In this document: positions 4,675 through 28,518 of the stretch, piece by piece
Layout of the letters: each line of letters opens with the position of its first letter
Numbering within the stretch: the first letter of the stretch is position 1
DNA from: a phage
Sequence record: NC_111505.1
Length of the DNA stretch: 64,000 bases
Reading direction: 5' to 3' (one strand)
Program-made: the position numbers and the translations under genes
Notes under the pieces: generated by a model
Seen by the model: only the letters and a program-made list of their open reading frames with translations
Told to the model about the DNA's origin: nothing
Database searches by the model: none

Positions 4675-5193
4675 ATGCTGCTAGTTGATTGGAAAGATTT
4701 TTATGGCGACAAAGACCCGAAAGCATTTATATATAAGCCTTGGAGATACTCAGAAAGTCAAATTGCTGCAATAAACCTTACAGCAAAGCGCCGAAAAATT
4801 ATCGAAAGTAAATATAGATACGCTCAGCTGGTAGCTGGTGTTTCTCCACAGGTAGAGAGTTTTGTGCTTAAACTGTACGAAAAGTTTATGAGTTACGATC
4901 TGTCATTCGTGAAGGTTGGTGATGATTTATCTCCTGGTAACAACGTAACCCGTTGGAAAGTTTCGTGTGACAAAAAACTCCCGATCAGTATTGAGGTGTG
5001 TCGATACTGGGGGTATCATGAGTGTGGATTTTATGACTACCATGATGTGGAAATAAAGCCACGCAATCATCTAAGCGACCCAGAAAAAGATTACTTGAAG
5101 CATGTGATTCTTTCCATGTTTGGAGGGTACATCACAGAGAAAAATAGCGAAGACAGAATATCCTTTCTTAACAGTTTGAACCAAGAGATGTAG
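4675..5193 (+). CDS. hypothetical protein (172 aa)
   Basis: Track start is GTG 4666; ATG 4675 has GGAGGAG 8 nt upstream. Confidence 0.55.
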   Translation: MLLVDWKDFYGDKDPKAFIYKPWRYSESQIAAINLTAKRRKIIESKYRYAQLVAGVSPQVESFVLKLYEKFMSYDLSFVKVGDDLSPGNNVTRWKVSCDKKLPISIEVCRYWGYHECGFYDYHDVEIKPRNHLSDPEKDYLKHVILSMFGGYITEKNSEDRISFLNSLNQEM

Positions 5194-8431: not shown

Positions 8432-8830
8432 ATGAAGAACAAGCTTTTCAAAGTAACAATGAAAATTCGCGGAGCTTGGAGCGTAAAGCAAGGACGTATC
8501 CCAGAATTTGAGAAAGACTTCTACGTAGTCTCCACCTCGGAGGAGGCTGCATGCTGGCAGGCTGGCTATGCCTATGCAAGAACCTGGTACGAAGGGTACC
8601 AGACTGGGGGCTATGACGGAGAAATTGTCAGCAAGGGTGTGGAAGAAATTAATGTGTTGACAAGTGAAAAAGTTTTTGTTATAGTGCATCCAGATTCCAG
8701 AGTGAAGCATTACTGGAATGCCAGAACAAAAACTTGGACACCGTTTGCAGATTCTGCTACACCACTTTTAAACCAAAAAGCTCTTGACTCTGCCCCGAGC
8801 TACGGGGTTGTTGAAGAAAAGCTAGACTGA
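8432..8830 (+). CDS. hypothetical protein, paralog of 10646-11041
   Basis: Track start is TTG 8417; ATG 8432 has GGAG SD; shares ...HP.S...YW......WTP... block with the 10646 ORF. Confidence 0.6.
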   Translation: MKNKLFKVTMKIRGAWSVKQGRIPEFEKDFYVVSTSEEAACWQAGYAYARTWYEGYQTGGYDGEIVSKGVEEINVLTSEKVFVIVHPDSRVKHYWNARTKTWTPFADSATPLLNQKALDSAPSYGVVEEKLD

Positions 8831-20614: not shown

Positions 20615-20654
20615 TCTGTCATGTTGGCGGCATCATTGCCGCCCTACGAAATAC

Positions 20655-20682
20655 ATTCTACCCGATTTGTAATTGTTGTCAA
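20655..20682 (-). promoter_or_regulatory. Sigma70-like promoter (TTGACA-N16-TAGAAT), - strand
   Basis: - strand reads TTGACAacaattacaaatcgggTAGAAT, followed by a stable hairpin then the ATG of 20351-20614. Confidence 0.6.
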
Positions 20683-20683
20683 A

Positions 20684-20878
20684 CTAATTTTTACAAGGAA
20701 TCAGTAAACTTCTTGCTACTGCTTCGCGTAGTCCTTGACTTTTTATCAGATCTATTGTTGCAGGATGGCAAGTAAAAGCCTTTGACCATTTTTGATCCCC
20801 TGGTTTACGGGCAAAAATGTAAACTTCCCCGTCGATTTCATCCCAACGAGTATTGCTTGTTAGTTTTTTAAGCGCCAT
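20684..20878 (-). CDS. hypothetical protein (64 aa)
   Basis: Track start is GTG 20908; ATG 20878 with AAAGGGAA SD. Confidence 0.5.
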   Translation of the reverse strand: MALKKLTSNTRWDEIDGEVYIFARKPGDQKWSKAFTCHPATIDLIKSQGLREAVARSLLIPCKN

Positions 20879-20953
20879 GATGATTTCCCTTTTAGTTGTG
20901 AGCGGCACTATTACCGCCCTATGTGATACATCTTAAACTAATTTAAAACGTTG

Positions 20954-21187
20954 TCAACACTTTTCAAAAAATTTTTCTGCCGTGATATTCTTCCCGGTAG
21001 GGTTCGCTACTTTCAAAATTTTATCATGCACTGGACGCCCAAAAGAATAAGCGCCGTACACAGTGCACCAATAATCGCCGTCAGGCTGTACTATTACCGC
21101 CGCATAGGGTACGCCTTTTTCGTTTTTGCTGACAAAATAGATCACATTGCCATTAATAGCCTCAGCGCGTTTAATTTGTTCCATCAT
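20954..21187 (-). CDS. hypothetical protein (77 aa)
   Basis: ATG with GGTGA SD. Confidence 0.55.
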   Translation of the reverse strand: MMEQIKRAEAINGNVIYFVSKNEKGVPYAAVIVQPDGDYWCTVYGAYSFGRPVHDKILKVANPTGKNITAEKFFEKC

Positions 21188-21535: not shown

Positions 21536-21736
21536 GATTTTAACTCCTATCTATCCGGTTAATGATTGGGGGCCGCCCCCCCTGACACGTCCTATTATCC
21601 ATATTGTAGGGCTTGATGCAAGTACTTTTTAAATTTTTTTAAGCGCCTTGTGGGCCGCTGTAACGCTAAAATAATAAAGGCCATGCAACCGCATAGCCTT
21701 TATGTGATTATATCGCTGCAGGCCCTGCCAGGGGCC

Positions 21737-22410: not shown

Positions 22411-22448
22411 TGCTCCTTTTTGCGCTGATTATTTTAGCAGGGTTTAAA

Positions 22449-22498
22449 TTTACTTTATTGATGGCCCTGGAGTCAAGGCCATCTAAAAATAAATTTTA
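22449..22498. repeat. 45-bp intergenic cassette copy 1 (promoter-like TTGACT..TAAATT around a 7-bp-stem hairpin)
   Basis: TTTACTTTATTGATGGCCCTGGAGTCAAGGCCATCTAAAAATAAA; sits directly 3' of the - strand stop codon. Confidence 0.6.
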
Positions 22499-22696
22499 CA
22501 GGCCTACAATCTCTTTGATTCGTTTAACTGCTGCCTCAGCGCCTTGGGGGTAGAAATTATGGTAACCGATCACGCGAGTGATACTAATCGCCGTTTGATG
22601 ATCTTCATAATCGCCCTTGAAGATTTCTTGACCGTCAATCAGCACGGCAATTTTTTCTTCTTTTTTGAAGTTAATAACGCGGATATTGTTGCTCAT
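22496..22696 (-). CDS. hypothetical protein (66 aa)
   Basis: ATG with AAAGGAGAAA SD. Confidence 0.6.
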   Translation of the reverse strand: MSNNIRVINFKKEEKIAVLIDGQEIFKGDYEDHQTAISITRVIGYHNFYPQGAEAAVKRIKEIVGL

Positions 22697-22836
22697 TTTG
22701 TTTCTCCTTTCTGGTTTTTGTGTTGGTGGGGATTAGCTCCCCGTTGATTGTCATTATCCACATTCCGGACCGGATTGCAACACCCCGGAAGAAAATTTTT
22801 TTAAAAAGATAAGCCCCCATGATCGGGGGCCGTTCT

Positions 22837-22956
22837 TAGTTACTTACTGCGATAAAGTACATCCCTACGCCTAGCAATATTTCAAGGGCGATGATCTCAA
22901 GCCATACCATAACCCGGCGCACCTTATCGGTGCGGGGCTTATCCTTGGGTGTCATC
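22837..22956 (-). CDS. candidate 39-aa membrane peptide
   Basis: MTPKDKPRTDKVRRVMVWLEIIALEILLGVGMYFIAVSN; SD GGGGGAG; followed by terminator-like hairpin CCCCCG-ATCAT-GGGGG plus U-tract (about 22795-22830). Confidence 0.3.
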
Positions 22957-22975
22957 GTCTCCCCCTTTCCTCCTG

Positions 22976-23197
22976 TTAGTAGTGACGTGGTTTACAATGG
23001 TCCCCAGGAGTACTATCGCCACGCACATTACGAGAAAAATTATTTCTTCCGTTGTTCGGTCCATTATTATAAAAGTCCTCAAGATCAGGCCTAAAAGTAA
23101 ATCCTTCGTTATTGAATCCGTCACGCCAGGCGGCTGGCTTCAAATCTTCACTAAATGGATTAATTAACGTGGCATTATTTAAACGGCTGGCCCACAT
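22976..23197 (-). CDS. hypothetical Asn/Gly-rich protein (73 aa)
   Basis: Track start is TTG 23215; ATG 23197 with GAGAGGAA SD. Confidence 0.45.
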   Translation of the reverse strand: MWASRLNNATLINPFSEDLKPAAWRDGFNNEGFTFRPDLEDFYNNGPNNGRNNFSRNVRGDSTPGDHCKPRHY

Positions 23198-23546
23198 ATT
23201 TTCTATTCCTCTCAAATAAGCGATCCGCCTCAGTTAAACAAATCTCATGGGCGTGATCTCTGGTTTTAGCCTCATCGAAAACCTGTTGCGCAAGGCTGCA
23301 ACGTAGGGAGATCGGGAGATCACTATAATAGGCGTTGACAAACGTTTGAGCGTCGTACAGGTCTGAAAATACTTCACCCTTTCTATTATTCCCCTTGTCA
23401 ACAATTGCAAGGATAATTAATACAATAGTTGCAACCACCCCCAGGAAAATAGATATAATAAACCATAAAAAGGCGGATCTTCCCATCTTGCCAGCGATCC
23501 AGGCGTTAAATAAGGCGACCAACACAGCCAAAATAATAAATTCCAT
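23175..23546 (-). CDS. membrane protein (2 TM) with soluble C-terminal domain
   Basis: Track start is TTG 23579; ATG 23546 with AAAAGAGG SD. Confidence 0.55.
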   Translation of the reverse strand: MEFIILAVLVALFNAWIAGKMGRSAFLWFIISIFLGVVATIVLIILAIVDKGNNRKGEVFSDLYDAQTFVNAYYSDLPISLRCSLAQQVFDEAKTRDHAHEICLTEADRLFERNRKYVGQPFK

Positions 23547-23610
23547 TCTATGTACCTCTTTTGCAGTTCTTATCAACAATAAGGCGGCAAATATGCCGCC
23601 TGCTACCTGA

Positions 23611-23991
23611 TTAAAAATTATCGCCGTAAATCTTTCCGCTTTCTACCCATACCACCACGCGAGGCATACTATCCCACACGTCTTGTTTTAGATTGAGCGC
23701 GTGCAATTCTTCGGTGGTGCTCATACCGGGCACGGGCTGATTGTATACTGCAAAACGACCGCCTGCATAATCATAGGCCAGGGTTAAATCACACTGGATC
23801 ATCTTTTTGATCATGGCATTAAGCATGGCGTTAGCCGCATATTGATCACGTTTTAAAGGCAACTCTTTGATTAGTTTGCGATAGTTTTCGATATGGTCGC
23901 ACACTGTTTCACGCGGAAGATCTTTCATATCTTCACGGAATGTGACCAGGTTAAACATAACGGTGTCAATAGCCTTGGTGGTGTTTTTCAT
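23611..23991 (-). CDS. hypothetical protein (126 aa)
   Basis: ATG with AGAGGA SD. Confidence 0.6.
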   Translation of the reverse strand: MKNTTKAIDTVMFNLVTFREDMKDLPRETVCDHIENYRKLIKELPLKRDQYAANAMLNAMIKKMIQCDLTLAYDYAGGRFAVYNQPVPGMSTTEELHALNLKQDVWDSMPRVVVWVESGKIYGDNF

Positions 23992-24074
23992 GATGTTATC
24001 CTCTATGTTTTGTGTTGGGGCAAACGTCTTGCCCCTTGAGTTTTAATATAGCAGGTTTTTAGGTTATTGCAACA

Positions 24075-24326
24075 CTATTTTTTTTTTAAATTATTGTGGC
24101 GCAAAATGTTTAAAATCTCCTCAACGTCATCAACACGGCGGCAATTTTTAAACGCTACCAATTGCCCCATGATTTTAATCACTGGGCGGCCTTGCCAGTG
24201 CCCCTGAAGAAAGCGCGCTTTGACTTTATCGGTGGAACTATCACGCCACCAGATAGCTTTATTGTTGCAGTAGTAAAAATTATTCAGGATAACATCAACT
24301 TTATCAAAATTTTTTAATTTGCGCAT
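24075..24326 (-). CDS. hypothetical basic protein (83 aa)
   Basis: ATG with AAAGGAG SD. Confidence 0.6.
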   Translation of the reverse strand: MRKLKNFDKVDVILNNFYYCNNKAIWWRDSSTDKVKARFLQGHWQGRPVIKIMGQLVAFKNCRRVDDVEEILNILRHNNLKKK

Positions 24327-24546
24327 GGCGTTTACTCCTTTCTCTCTTTGATGTGGTTAGTATAGCTAATCTGTTGACGATGTCAATGATATTTTTAACG
24401 CTATAAAACGGCCCTGAGCGATGTTTTCAGGTTAAAGGGGGGCGATTGCATAGGTGGGGGCCTTTTTTGGCGCTTACGGGGCCAACCAGGGGCGCTATTA
24501 GTAGGATAGAAATAAAAAGCCCCGCACAATGGCGGGGCGTTGGTTG

Positions 24547-24744
24547 TTATTTGTCTTTATGGCGGTATCGTTCTGCCTGTCGTTCACGTTCCAAAAGTAG
24601 GCCGGGCAATTTACGATCATAATGATTCCGCCAGATCTTCCCAAACCTTTTTGGCTTATTCAGTTTATTGTTGCGCTGTCGGCGTTCTGGCAGCTCTTCG
24701 GAATCATGAGGGCGCTTTACAATTTTCTCGAAATTAATTTTCAT
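24547..24744 (-). CDS. small highly basic (Arg/Lys-rich) protein (65 aa)
   Basis: Track start is TTG 24768; ATG 24744 with AAGGGGGAA SD; + strand ORF 24540-24737 rejected. Confidence 0.5.
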   Translation of the reverse strand: MKINFEKIVKRPHDSEELPERRQRNNKLNKPKRFGKIWRNHYDRKLPGLLLERERQAERYRHKDK

Positions 24745-25087
24745 ATATTCCCCCCTTGTTAACCTCAATATTGGCCTGAATAGCCCGGATACGGCGCTTT
24801 ATAACTTCCTGATCTGTGTGGTCGTATCCCCAAAAGTCAACAATTTTTGCGCCCCCCGCCTCCAGGCGGTATAGTGTTTCCTGCATTTTGTAAGCCGGGA
24901 TCGGTCGCGGTGTTACTTGGTCACCTTCTTTATTTTTATACTTTATAATATAATCTTCGTTATCGTTGAATGTCCAAAATGGATATTCTGCAAGGGCGGT
25001 ACTTCCTCTTTCCTTTTTATCCTGGATCTTGTTTACAATTAAAGCCGTAGCAATAGCGCCAATAATAAAACTAGTCCCGCTGATCAT
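24734..25087 (-). CDS. membrane-anchored protein (N-terminal TM, 117 aa)
   Basis: Track start is GTG 25093; ATG 25087 with AAAGGAGAAAG SD. Confidence 0.55.
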   Translation of the reverse strand: MISGTSFIIGAIATALIVNKIQDKKERGSTALAEYPFWTFNDNEDYIIKYKNKEGDQVTPRPIPAYKMQETLYRLEAGGAKIVDFWGYDHTDQEVIKRRIRAIQANIEVNKGGIYEN

Positions 25088-25163
25088 GTGCACTTTCTCC
25101 TTTCATGGTGTTAATAAATTATCTTTATAGATGGCCCTGCAACCAGGACCACCGAAAAAATAA

Positions 25164-25409
25164 CTATTTCACAATGCCTACAAAACAGATCCCGCCTTCA
25201 CCTATGTAAGCAACATCGGTAACTTTATAATTTGTCAAGATCTGTTTATTTAGTTCATTAATAAAATCGGTCATTGCGTTGGTGTGGTTGTCTTCCATGT
25301 CTAGGGAATAGTCCCAGGTGTAGACCTTTTTACGTCCGAAGCCTTTTACCATGATACGGGCGCTTTTGGTGTTGGTGGGCGCATAATATTTTGTGATTAG
25401 TGCTGCCAT
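25164..25409 (-). CDS. hypothetical protein (81 aa)
   Basis: ATG with TGAGGAG SD. Confidence 0.6.
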   Translation of the reverse strand: MAALITKYYAPTNTKSARIMVKGFGRKKVYTWDYSLDMEDNHTNAMTDFINELNKQILTNYKVTDVAYIGEGGICFVGIVK

Positions 25410-25450
25410 GGGTTTTAACTCCTCATTAGTTCAGTGTTAACAGTGTAAAG

Positions 25451-25500
25451 TTTACTTTATTGATGGCCCTGGAGTCAAGGCCATCTAAAAATAAATTTTA
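25451..25500. repeat. 45-bp intergenic cassette copy 2
   Basis: Near-identical to 22449-22498 and 26073-26120; a degenerate partial copy lies at about 25121-25140. Confidence 0.6.
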
Positions 25501-25839
25501 CTCGTTTTCTTCCAGCTCTGAAAGCTCCTCTTTCACTTCTTCCAGCTCTGTCTGCAATTCCTGGTATTCTTCATCGTCCTCAATATCCAGGCTGTCGATG
25601 TAGTCGCTAAATCCGCAGCGGTAAGCGATAGGATCTAACTCCTTGAGGATACGCGACGGAAGAAAAGAAATGTTACCGATCATAATTTCGCCGTGAATCT
25701 CGTCTAACCATTCATCATAGTTTTCGTCGTACTTGTCCTCGTCGATTTCAAAGTTATCGATCTTGTTCTCAAGATCTGCGATCTGTTTTTTCAGCGCGGC
25801 GATCTGCATAGCTTTTTCTGCGGCGGTCATAGTAGTCAT
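25498..25839 (-). CDS. acidic coiled-coil protein (113 aa)
   Basis: ATG with AAAAAGGAGAAAA SD. Confidence 0.6.
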   Translation of the reverse strand: MTTMTAAEKAMQIAALKKQIADLENKIDNFEIDEDKYDENYDEWLDEIHGEIMIGNISFLPSRILKELDPIAYRCGFSDYIDSLDIEDDEEYQELQTELEEVKEELSELEENE

Positions 25840-25917
25840 GGTGTTTTCTCCTTTTTGTGTTTTGGGAAGTTTTCCCGTTTACGTGTTTAAGTATACCGAT
25901 TTAGGTTAACTTGTCAA

Positions 25918-26037
25918 TTAAAAATTTAAGAAAAATTTTGCAAAACTGTTGGCGCTACTCATTAACATTTGCGCCAGGATGTAACCGACAACGCAAACGA
26001 TAATAGTTACCTTTGTGTATTGGCGTGTAGTGCTCAT
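25918..26037 (-). CDS. candidate 39-aa membrane peptide
   Basis: MSTTRQYTKVTIIVCVVGYILAQMLMSSANSFAKFFLNF; SD AAAAAGGGGG; immediately downstream of cassette copy 3. Confidence 0.3.
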   Translation of the reverse strand: MSTTRQYTKVTIIVCVVGYILAQMLMSSANSFAKFFLNF

Positions 26038-26072
26038 CTTAAAGCCCCCTTTTTTCGCTTAGTTGAGACTAG

Positions 26073-26120
26073 TTTACTTTATTGATGGCCCTGGAGTCAA
26101 GGCCATCTAAAAATAAACTT
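26073..26120. repeat. 45-bp intergenic cassette copy 3
   Basis: AGTTTACTTTATTGATGGCCCTGGAGTCAAGGCCATCTAAAAATAAA directly 3' of the stop of 26119-26523. Confidence 0.6.
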
Positions 26121-26523
26121 AATAAGTTTTCAGTACTTTCCCGTCCAACCTGTCAAGCTGGATCTCAATAGCTGCAGAAAACCTATTGTACACCACGTCG
26201 CCCATAGAATCCAACCAATCTATGACGTTATATACCTGCTCTTTATTCTTACAGGTCCGGATCCGTTTCATGATGTAAGCCGGATCAATATTGGTACTCT
26301 CGTTGGTGTTCCCCTGTACCTGGTTTGCTGTATTAGTTACATCTTTAATGGCCTTTACCACCACCTGGAAGGGCTTTAAGGTGCCTTTTGCGTTCATCTC
26401 ACGCGCTTTTGCGGCGCGGTTGTTATATGTTACACAACGGCGGCAAATGTTGATCAAATGCATGTCAATAATTTTTTCATCGTTTGCCAACTCGTTCATG
26501 ATGCGGCGTACGTTCTTATTCAT
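26119..26523 (-). CDS. hypothetical protein (134 aa)
   Basis: ATG with AAAGGAAAAAG SD. Confidence 0.6.
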   Translation of the reverse strand: MNKNVRRIMNELANDEKIIDMHLINICRRCVTYNNRAAKAREMNAKGTLKPFQVVVKAIKDVTNTANQVQGNTNESTNIDPAYIMKRIRTCKNKEQVYNVIDWLDSMGDVVYNRFSAAIEIQLDRLDGKVLKTY

Positions 26524-26605
26524 GATCTTTTTCCTTTGTTCTGGCGGGAGACATTCCCGCCTTTTGTGCCTAGTTTACTTGAATTTTGCAGCGTGTCAAT
26601 GATTT

Positions 26606-27594: not shown

Positions 27595-27623
27595 TTGCAG
27601 CGGTTAGCGCATCAGGTTAGAAT
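27595..27623 (+). promoter_or_regulatory. Sigma70-like promoter (TTGCAG-N17-TAGAAT), + strand, followed by T10 run
   Basis: First of two tandem rightward promoters facing an ORF-free region. Confidence 0.5.
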
Positions 27624-27642
27624 TTTTTTTTTTTGAAAAGTG

Positions 27643-27671
27643 TTGACAGCGGCCCCGCCAGGTGGCACAAT
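27643..27671 (+). promoter_or_regulatory. Sigma70-like promoter (TTGACA-N17-CACAAT), + strand
   Basis: Consensus -35; weaker -10; directly upstream of structured element copy 1. Confidence 0.4.
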
Positions 27672-27675
27672 ATAC

Positions 27676-27750
27676 ATATCGAAAGGACGGCAGGCACCGG
27701 TGACGGGGGAGACAACCACCGGGGATGGGCGCTGCATGAAATGAGAACGA
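27676..27750 (+). ncRNA. Candidate small structured RNA / repeated element, copy 1
   Basis: No ORF; internal CCGGTG..CACCGG stem; conserved blocks GGGAGACAAYCACCGGGGRTG and GAGAAYGATTATCATT shared with copy 2. Confidence 0.25.
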
Positions 27751-27819
27751 TTATCATTATCGTCTAAAAATTTATGCAAAAACTTCTTGCTTTCTTTGTC
27801 CTGTGTGATACTATAATAA

Positions 27820-27886
27820 CAAGCCGGGGCAGTAGGGGCCGGGAGACAATCACCGGGGGTGCCCGTTATTCTGCAAACGAGAATGA
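27820..27886 (+). ncRNA. Candidate small structured RNA / repeated element, copy 2
   Basis: Preceded by promoter-like TTGCTT..TATAAT (27787-27817); same conserved blocks as copy 1. Confidence 0.25.
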
Positions 27887-28009
27887 TTATCATTCAAAAT
27901 TCTAAATGATAACTTTTCGCATTTCATAAATTTAGTTAGCATGCTAATTACCTACCGTGACAATTCTATATAAAATAATACCTCCTAAAATATTCCCATA
28001 TAGAAATTT

Positions 28010-28185
28010 TAAAAATCCATTTCTGAAAACGAAAAATCGATTTCGTCCCCAAAAATTTCAGGTCGAGCGCCGGAACGATTCCCAGAAAATCTGATTCAGA
28101 AAACGAAAAACAGATCGAGTACCGAAAAATTTATCGAGAAAAATTTTCAGAAAATTCAATCTTTGAAACGAAAAACAGATCGAGT
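28010..28185. repeat. AT-rich iteron array (3 copies of GAAAACGAAAAACAGATCGAGTAC-like 23-mer with GATC cores)
   Basis: Copies at about 28019, 28094, 28160 (66-75 bp spacing); flanking ATCCATTT repeats at 28011, 28371, 28391, 28453. Confidence 0.45.
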
Positions 28186-28518
28186 ACTGAGAGAGAGATG
28201 TATCAAAACTTACTGATAATAATTAACTTATTGTCATAAAAGGCCGAAGGTAAGTTGGGAAAGTTCTGGTAGAAGGGTGAGAGTGTGTGCGGAAAATCTG
28301 GAACGGTGATTTGAAGTACGGTGCGAATGATAGAATGAGCAGCGCAGCTTATCGCGCCTGTATTGAAAAAATCCATTTTAGTTTTCGATCCATTTTCTGA
28401 TTTTCTAAGGATTTCCAAATATCTGCAAATATCTGATAAATAAGGGAAAATCCATTACATATTTTCCCTCATCGCCTAAAATTTTTATAATTTTAAAATA
28501 AATACTACCATAAATATC

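Follow-up and report, generated by a model that had tools for sequence, protein, structure and literature searches.

A repeated intercistronic hairpin cassette with an embedded promoter-like sequence among the early genes of an rV5-like coliphage

Early region and the four copies of the cassette

The window analysed in this study is a stretch of 64,000 nucleotides (nt) of the phage record NC_111505.1, and its subject is a cassette of 54 bases found in four copies among small early genes, all on the minus (coding) strand. The window belongs to an rV5-like coliphage of the genus Vequintavirus (Vequintavirinae). Over the 4-kb region carrying the cassettes, its nearest relative is phage FV3 (96.8% identity), and 122 phage records match. 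Every gene between 20 and 29 kb is encoded on the minus strand, and according to Pfam and PHROGs the products are small ORFans, with the sole exception of a homologue of T7 gp1.1. The region has canonical intrinsic terminators as well as strong promoters of the sigma-70 type, which match at 10-11 of 12 positions and have spacers of 16-17 nt. Because of these promoters and the small ORFan genes, the region looks like one transcribed early by the host polymerase, in line with the proposal of the rV5 authors.

Two transcription units can be predicted around the cassettes (Table 1; gene sizes in amino acids, aa). The first runs from the promoter at 26599 through the 134-aa gene, copy 3, the 39-aa gene, the promoter at 25917, the 113-aa gene, copy 2, the 81-aa gene, copy 4, the 117-aa gene and the gp1.1-like gene to the terminator at 24538. 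The second runs from the promoter at 22780 through the 66-aa gene, copy 1, the 101-aa gene and the 116-aa gene to the terminator at 21703. With this predicted layout, the hairpins described below would be intercistronic elements of polycistronic early RNAs.

The original prediction, made by reading the sequence, had described three near-identical copies and a diverged one, lying directly after stop codons, and on these points it was borne out. A repeat search recovered a 61-nt family at 22447-22507, 25449-25509 and 26071-26131, with 90-100% identity among its members, as well as a fourth copy at 25117-25177 with 62% identity, while a 24-nt core (GATGGCCCTGGAGTCAAGGCCATC) occurred three times against none expected from 100 shuffles. 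The three similar copies (1-3) are referred to as A-type and the remaining one (copy 4) as B-type. Each begins at the stop codon of the upstream open reading frame (ORF) or one base off it, the stop falling at most within the first two base pairs (bp) of the lower stem of the hairpin. Copy 1 has TAAATT in place of TAAACT, and copy 3 opens with TAA-GTTTATT. Intergenic spaces holding a cassette measure 81-88 nt, with a GGAG-type Shine-Dalgarno sequence 20-30 nt past the hairpin. A covariance model of the cassette scored copy 1 at 81.7 bits on the minus strand and 43.6 bits on the plus strand, and copy 4 at 67.7 bits. Run with its filters off over the 64-kb window and over positions 1-93000 of FV3, which stand for the remainder of the genome, the model found no further copies beyond the four, all within 3.7 kb.

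Related genomes, in which a search for the cassette had been proposed, do carry it: a search with the 61-nt query found it in 120 records, nearly always at three places per record, and a single one of these records lies outside Vequintavirus. The exact 24-mer was present in one contig only of IMG/VR. An intermediate lineage through which the cassette could be traced was not found among the relatives of the 81-aa protein, which are either at least 90% identical and of the same genus or less than 60% identical, the latter being unrelated siphoviruses and Pseudomonas phages. Database annotation of the element is inconsistent, with a 'terminator' in Murica, where copies 1 and 4 are labelled as 45-nt terminators, a 'promoter' in Gotham and nothing in rV5. 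No description of the cassette was found in the rV5 literature searchable here.

Table 1. Positions of the cassettes and of associated features in the window
Feature	Position	Strand	Remarks
Copy 1 (A-type)	22444-22497	-	Starts at the stop of the 66-aa ORF; -24.8 kcal/mol, z -5.4
Copy 1 hexamers	TTGACT 22476-22471, TAAATT 22452-22447	-	18-nt spacer
Copy 4 (B-type)	25114-25167	-	Overlaps the TAG stop of the 81-aa ORF; stem letters differ, same fold, no -35
Copy 2 (A-type)	25446-25499	-	After the stop codon of the 113-aa ORF
Copy 2 hexamers	TTGACT 25478-25473, TAAACT 25454-25449	-	18-nt spacer
Copy 3 (A-type)	26068-26121	-	Overlaps the stop codon of the 134-aa ORF
Copy 3 hexamers	TTGACT 26100-26095, TAAACT 26076-26071	-	18-nt spacer
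Canonical sigma-70-type promoter TTGACA-16-TAAACT	26572-26599	-	Heads the unit with copies 3, 2 and 4
Canonical promoter TTGACA-16-TATACT of the 113-aa gene	25890-25917	-	Upstream recombination junction of the KKE7M module
Canonical intrinsic terminator	24519-24538	-	GC stem and U-tract; closes the unit with copies 3, 2 and 4
Promoter-like site TTGCAA-16-GATAAT	22753-22780	-	Heads the unit with the 66-aa gene, copy 1, the 101-aa gene and the 116-aa gene
Terminator-like site	21703-21674	-	Closes the unit with copy 1
622-nt module	25499-26120	-	Edges are copies 3 and 2; holds the 39-aa ORF, a strong promoter and the 113-aa ORF
39-aa ORF	25918-26037	-	Inside the 622-nt module
113-aa ORF	25498-25839	-	Inside the 622-nt module

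RNA fold, promoter sequences and termination

Folding of the sense strand yielded a hairpin in which an upper stem of 10 bp, rich in GC and capped by the tetraloop ACUC, is separated by a 2x3 internal loop from a 10-bp A/U lower stem; this replaces the originally proposed hairpin with a 7-bp stem and the -35 box in its loop. The arms of the upper stem (GAUGGCCUUG and CAGGGCCAUC) contain one U.G pair and take in the TTG of the -35 hexamer; in the lower stem, the A/T-rich stretch past the stop codon pairs with the AAAGUAAAC/U stretch carrying the -10 hexamer. Folding energies of the four copies range from -24.6 to -25.1 kcal/mol (z = -4.6 to -6.6), those of the A-type copies from -24.8 to -25.1 kcal/mol (z = -5.4 to -6.6). 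Copy 4, once taken as degenerate, folds at -24.6 kcal/mol in sense and at -10.7 kcal/mol in antisense orientation, and is a well-conserved structural paralogue rather than a decayed one.

Comparative evidence was drawn from the four sites as read in 17 genomes, amounting to 58 instances and 33 distinct sequences. RNAalifold, run unguided, returned the same 20 pairs. Standard pairs filled 98.6% of the pair cells on the sense strand, compared with 35-56% when the 3' partners were slid by 1-3 columns and with 86.7% on the antisense strand, where the 87 G.U cells become A.C mismatches. Four pairs of the lower stem had changed on both sides (G-C/A-U/G.U, U-A/C-G, U-A/A-U/G.U and A-U/U-A), while the upper stem was 100% paired, with four variable pairs, each changed on one side and always to or from G.U. 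Every one-sided stem change was in fact a G.U wobble on the sense strand only. The same strand bias was seen in the mean folding energies, which were -23.5 in sense and -16.2 in antisense for the A-type and -24.6 and -9.8, respectively, for the B-type, and in the covariance-model scores (68-82 bits versus 31-44 bits). Variation was otherwise concentrated in the first base of the 3' internal loop and in the tetraloop, which reads ACUC, ACUU, ACGC or ACAC in the A-type and GUUG, GCUG, GUAG, GUGG or GUAA in the B-type. No Rfam family was matched in a scan of the 20-29 kb region, the best overlapping hit being rhtB with 23.1 bits against a threshold of 55 (E = 2.6).

These comparisons give good support to the view that the 54-nt unit forms a conserved hairpin in sense-strand read-through RNA. 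The pairing itself, the compensatory changes, the restriction of G.U pairs to the sense strand and the persistence of the fold in a B-type copy lacking the -35 all argue that the object of selection is an RNA hairpin and not a double-stranded DNA palindrome. Among the functions offered by the original prediction (promoter, processing site or regulator-binding site), an RNA-level element therefore gains from the covariation, the sense-only G.U pairs and the promoter-less paralogue, whereas a DNA operator loses ground through the strand asymmetry. Such an operator would consist of the palindrome GATGGCC-N10-GGCCATC over the -35, bound by a dimeric phage or host DNA-binding protein that co-regulates three promoters, and it would account for the perfect inverted repeat of 7 bp that has the -35 at its centre and is kept in about 120 genomes. 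We nevertheless consider it very unlikely: substitutions are asymmetric, with G.U on one strand only, covariation is seen as far as 20 bp from the centre, in the A/U lower stem, no promoter lies at the B-type copy, and the half-sites lie 17 bp apart from centre to centre and thus on different sides of the helix.

At the DNA level, the spacing of the hexamers was as first described, with TTGACT, an 18-nt gap and TAAACT in copies 2 and 3 (copy 2 reading exactly as noted) and TAAATT as the second hexamer of copy 1, which makes 9 of 12 matches, the match being poorer than in the canonical promoters of this phage. The extended -10 (AAGTAAACT) is common to the cassette and to canonical promoters of both this phage and a phi92-like phage, and copy 3 has exactly the same -10 region, AAGTAAACTAG, as the canonical promoter at 26599-26572. 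Furthermore, where KKE7M has a cassette, its phi92-like relative UAB_1 has a promoter with no hairpin, TTGCAA-16-TAAACT, which contains the same ATAAAGTAAACT. Across the 25 distinct A-type sequences, variation within the hexamers is confined to position 6 of the -35 and position 5 of the -10, and the PhagePromoter annotation of Gotham marks the cassette at the copy 2 site as a promoter. The B-type copy has no usable -35, its candidates being CTGGTT (17-nt spacer) and TTGCAG (13-nt spacer). Judged by these motifs, a weak sigma-70 promoter in copies 1-3 is probable.

The cassette might then be only a reiterated sigma-70 early promoter, its inverted repeat being incidental or tuning promoter strength at the DNA level. 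The presence of TTGACT-18-TAAACT behind an A/T-rich upstream arm, the annotation in Gotham, a -10 region shared with canonical promoters and the invariance of the critical hexamer positions in the A-type would all be expected from such an element. A promoter cannot, however, explain why the fold has been kept, since the B-type copy, without a usable -35, retains all 20 pairs by means of compensatory and wobble changes. Moreover, the repeat unit stops exactly at the ends of the hairpin and not at a transcription start, the G.U strand asymmetry is left unexplained for double-stranded promoter DNA, and the canonical promoters of the window are unstructured (z about 0), so that this explanation appears quite unlikely. 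The same lack of folding led us to reject the hairpin as a general trait of the promoters of this phage.

In UAB_1 (OL656106, L013 985-1065, minus strand), the sequence UUUUACUUU upstream of the promoter can pair with AAAGUAAA of the -10 region, while 985-1065 as a whole is unstructured (z = +1.1). This pairing potential may be a chance effect of A/T richness, or a relic or precursor of the lower stem.

Regarding termination, no U-tract follows the cassette hairpin, and on both strands the U-rich arm is the 5' one and the A-rich arm the 3' one. A terminator scan called sites at 24538, 23601, 22831 and 21703 but none of the four cassettes. An intrinsic terminator was consequently rejected, given the missing U-tract, the reversed composition of the arms and the absence of a call. 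A transcription attenuator or terminator hairpin that limits read-through between early genes without nuclease processing is a broader proposal, to which the stable hairpin right after stop codons and the Murica annotation of copies 1 and 4 lend some weight. In the promoter-early stem-loops (PeSLs) of T4-like phages, one stem-loop cut lacZ read-through like a strong terminator, and termination is the role proposed for the stem-loops of this class (PMC2839356; PMC4122927). We still regard attenuation as unlikely for the cassette: arms with the U-rich stretch 5' and the A-rich stretch 3', and no U-tract, are the opposite of an intrinsic terminator, the scan misses the cassettes yet finds canonical terminators nearby, and the genes after copy 4 have no promoter of their own and would be silenced by strong termination.

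Recombination at the cassette and other features of the region

The 622-nt segment that separates copies 2 and 3 is missing from phage ECP32 and from one IMG/VR contig. Each retains a single hybrid cassette (L011, L004), with its 5' flank from copy 3 and its 3' flank from copy 2; the overlap of the two alignments is exactly one cassette (L011 6488-6537). A second type of event is found in KKE7M, a Justusliebigvirus of the subfamily Stephanstirmvirinae, which carries a promoter, the 113-aa gene and a cassette with 96% identity to window positions 25451-25918. This homology ends at 25451, inside copy 2, and the module is absent from the relatives of KKE7M. When compared with UAB_1, the junctions fall in a shared promoter spacer (TTGACAAGATAACTAAAATC) and in a shared -10 region (AATAAAGTAAA.TATATTC).

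Exchange between copies appears to have left traces within genomes as well. The loop variant ACAC is shared by copies 2 and 3 of EdH4 and slur12, and ACUU by copies 1 and 2 of isim, while copy 3 of V18 has a 5' arm of the copy-2 type; these shared rare variants and the V18 arm point to gene conversion. Altogether, the comparison of genomes shows the cassettes acting as homology for the deletion, conversion and exchange of gene modules, because they are near-identical direct repeats whose promoter motifs are common to other phages.

Some insertions and deletions bypass the cassette, namely a deletion in rV5_ev146 and one of about 705 nt in the window. Compared with rV5_ev168, rV5_ev146 (LR699804) has a 510-nt deletion that takes copy 3 and the 134-aa gene; as the junction (10 nt) lies outside the cassette, a cassette-mediated deletion was rejected in this case. 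To the left of locus position 4900 rV5_ev146 is unrelated, and it is therefore a recombinant and not a simple derivative. The window and FV3 are both without a segment of about 705 nt that most relatives carry, consisting of a promoter and a 624-nt ORF (homologue of isim_19). This deletion maps to window positions 24070-24082, with a 13-nt alignment overlap (AAAAATAGTGTTG) just upstream of a TTGCAA promoter, and thus sits at a short repeat beside a promoter and not at a hairpin cassette.

A selfish or mobile palindromic element of the MITE or REP kind, or a mere recombination scar, either of them free of any regulatory role, would be in keeping with a short, palindromic sequence repeated at module boundaries, subject to gene conversion and spread to another phage subfamily. 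We hold this to be most unlikely, given that no site differing by the cassette alone was found, that there are no target-site duplications, that the cassette has always moved together with a gene, that its four positions are fixed in 17 genomes and that the compensatory changes indicate selection on the fold.

Among the flanking gene products, Pfam and PHROGs revealed no candidate for an RNA-binding protein, a nuclease or a regulator. The T7 gp1.1 homologue is a 65-aa ORF at 24550-24744 on the minus strand (Pfam PF08200, E = 2.6e-11, above the cut-off), so that a T7 early gene is present within the rV5-like early region. Positions 27600-28500 are mostly non-coding and may equal the 'non-coding' box of the rV5 map. 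They hold many direct repeats, including a 47-nt pair (28012-28058/28086-28132), a 20-nt family (27739-27923) and a 21-nt pair (27707-27727/27841-27861), as well as a long A/T hairpin at 28056-28019.

A 33-nt unit (GCGGCATCATTGCCGCC...) occurs three times at 20627-21117, where it resembles terminator hairpins with promoters behind them (20957 and 20682), and the phi92-like KKE7M has similar sequences (L007 about 1440-1540 and 8670-8770). A 23-nt inverted repeat (TTTTTTGAAAAGTGTTGACAGCG) joins 20949-20971 and 27629-27651, which are 96% complementary and 6.6 kb apart. It represents one and the same upstream-plus-TTGACA promoter sequence on opposite strands, so that a divergent promoter may lie on the plus strand near 27643. 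Finally, 17 records designated 'Campylobacter phage' (MG0656xx, host C. jejuni) share 90-97% identity with rV5-like E. coli phages, and further records of this designation match phi92-like phages, for which reason the host labels look doubtful.

Interpretation and relation to known elements

The explanation we favour, with a probability of roughly one half, is a PeSL-like composite cassette that combines an intercistronic processing or stabilising hairpin, an embedded weak promoter and homology for recombination. Read-through transcription from the strong upstream promoters would cross the upstream stop codon, upon which the hairpin would form on the sense strand and could act in the polycistronic early transcripts as an element of mRNA processing or stabilisation. 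Its likeliest form would be a T7-style RNase III site with one cut in the internal loop, leaving the upstream message a protective 3' hairpin and uncoupling the downstream message. The DNA of the A-type copies would at the same time spell a weak-to-moderate sigma-70 promoter, made up of the A/T-rich upstream arm, TTGACT, the 18-nt spacer and TAAACT. This embedded promoter could restart transcription for the downstream gene and turn each gene into an insulated module, and recombination between near-identical copies may then delete, convert or exchange such modules. The lower stem, the exact limit to four copies and the part played at recombination junctions had all gone unnoticed in the first reading of the sequence.

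Substrates of E. coli RNase III typically span two helical turns, and internal loops limit the cut to one bond, leaving a protective 3' hairpin (Pertzev and Nicholson, PMC1540722). In the corresponding model, an 11-bp helix, the distal box is U-A, U.G and the proximal box is G-C; A-U/U-A; A-U; A-U/U-A or unpaired (PMC1540722). The cassette forms a quasi-continuous helix of two turns (10 bp, 2x3 loop, 10 bp). Read from the loop, the A-type begins with G-C, U-A, U.G, which is the distal-box register of R1.1 (base pairs 2-3), and in its proximal box two positions are compatible with the model, position 2 being A-U and position 4 an A.A mismatch where R1.1 has U.C. The cassette thus resembles the T7 RNase III sites in shape and partly in determinants, and that its RNA is cleaved by RNase III is a reasoned guess.

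Several observations weigh against the composite cassette or one of its parts. As to cleavage, positions 1 and 3 of the A-type proximal box are U-A and G-C and not the preferred G-C and A-U, and the B-type lacks the U.G of the distal box, having C-G at distal-box position 2. As to the promoter, chance alone often yields a 9 of 12 match with an 18-nt spacer in an A/T-rich region (35 found, 22 expected), and the 33 promoters and 20 terminators of the rV5 genome paper omit the cassette. The covariation stems mostly from few events (A-type versus B-type, B1 versus B2), and a shuffle control for the pairs changed on both sides was not significant (218-336 of 500). Orthologous cassettes are just 1-6 points more identical than their flanks, and conservation alone is therefore no argument. 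In Gotham (MT682716), copy 3 (L003 5123-5171) has been destroyed by a 5-nt deletion (GGGCC) through which the upper stem is lost (-9.5 kcal/mol) and the promoter spacer cut to 13 nt; this is either a dead copy that the phage tolerates or a sequencing error. The genome has four cassettes where T4-like phages have dozens of PeSLs spread over their hyperplastic regions, and a literature search found no Vequintavirus transcriptome.

A bolder version, which we put forward tentatively, sees a dual-code element that would be a promoter as DNA and an RNase III-type hairpin as read-through RNA, the arms of the hairpin being the promoter's own upstream and -10 regions. Genes so equipped would be self-insulated portable modules, exchanged by recombination at shared promoter motifs between unrelated subfamilies of myoviruses, the rV5-like and the phi92-like.

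The composite cassette would extend the PeSL idea, that is, regulatory cassettes doubling as linkers for modular gene shuffling, beyond the T4-like phages, and its promoter-less paralogue with a conserved fold provides a natural test case for the role of the stem-loop at the RNA level. Besides that, the present analysis corrects the inconsistent database annotation of the element, and for the engineering of rV5-like therapeutic phages it provides four defined and apparently dispensable junctions at which genes might be inserted or removed.

Bacteria, too, have stable hairpins that stand between cistrons and lack a U-tract, such as REP elements (e.g. malE-malF), and these can stop 3'-to-5' exonucleases and increase the expression of the gene upstream. 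The cassette shares their intercistronic position, stability and missing U-tract, but REP elements belong to the host, have a consensus of their own and number in the hundreds, whereas the cassette is phage-specific, contains promoter hexamers and is present in four copies. N4-type DNA-hairpin promoters, lambda boxB and HK022 put have stems and loops of other sizes and need dedicated factors, and were set aside.

A closer parallel is offered by T7. We folded its five early intergenic regions at the RNase III sites R0.3, R0.5, R1, R1.1 and R1.3, at positions that we take to be those of Dunn and Studier (1983), and obtained the same architecture at -20 to -25 kcal/mol. In the T7 sites as in the cassette, a GC-rich upper stem of 9-10 bp, usually closed by a tetraloop, is followed by an asymmetric internal loop and a lower stem, the whole extending over about two helical turns, and in both cases mutually similar hairpins stand between the cistrons of sigma-70-driven polycistronic early transcripts. 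In R0.5 the lower stem contains the stop codon of T7 gene 0.4, and the stop codon of gene 0.7 is found at the base of R1, just as the stop codon of the cassette lies at the base of its stem. Promoters adjoin both, although in T7 the annotated host and T7 promoters stand beside the hairpins, whereas the promoter of the cassette would be embedded in its hairpin. Two further differences are the smaller internal loop of the cassette (2x3) and the lack of sequence homology, the cassette covariance model finding nothing in T7.

The other parallel is with the PeSLs described in the T4-like phages RB49, phi1, PST and nt-1 (Arbiol et al. 2010, PMC2839356; Comeau et al. 2014, PMC4122927). Like a PeSL, the cassette fills the intergenic space from a stop codon in an A/T-rich stretch, via sigma-70-like -35 and -10 boxes, to the next Shine-Dalgarno sequence, has a stable stem-loop that contains G-T pairs and may extend over the -35, is sited among small ORFan early genes and contains the junctions of insertions, deletions and replacements. 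It differs in phage lineage (Vequintavirinae) and in sequence, which are unrelated, in a promoter match below that of the phage's own canonical promoters, and in a long, bipartite stem enclosing the whole promoter where PeSLs have a short GGGG/CCCC stem. It differs as well in having no U-tract and in that one copy has lost the promoter while keeping the fold by compensatory changes, a combination that points to an RNA function other than PeSL-type termination. On the whole, the cassette resembles known elements of T4 and T7, of which it would be a variant and not a new kind of system.

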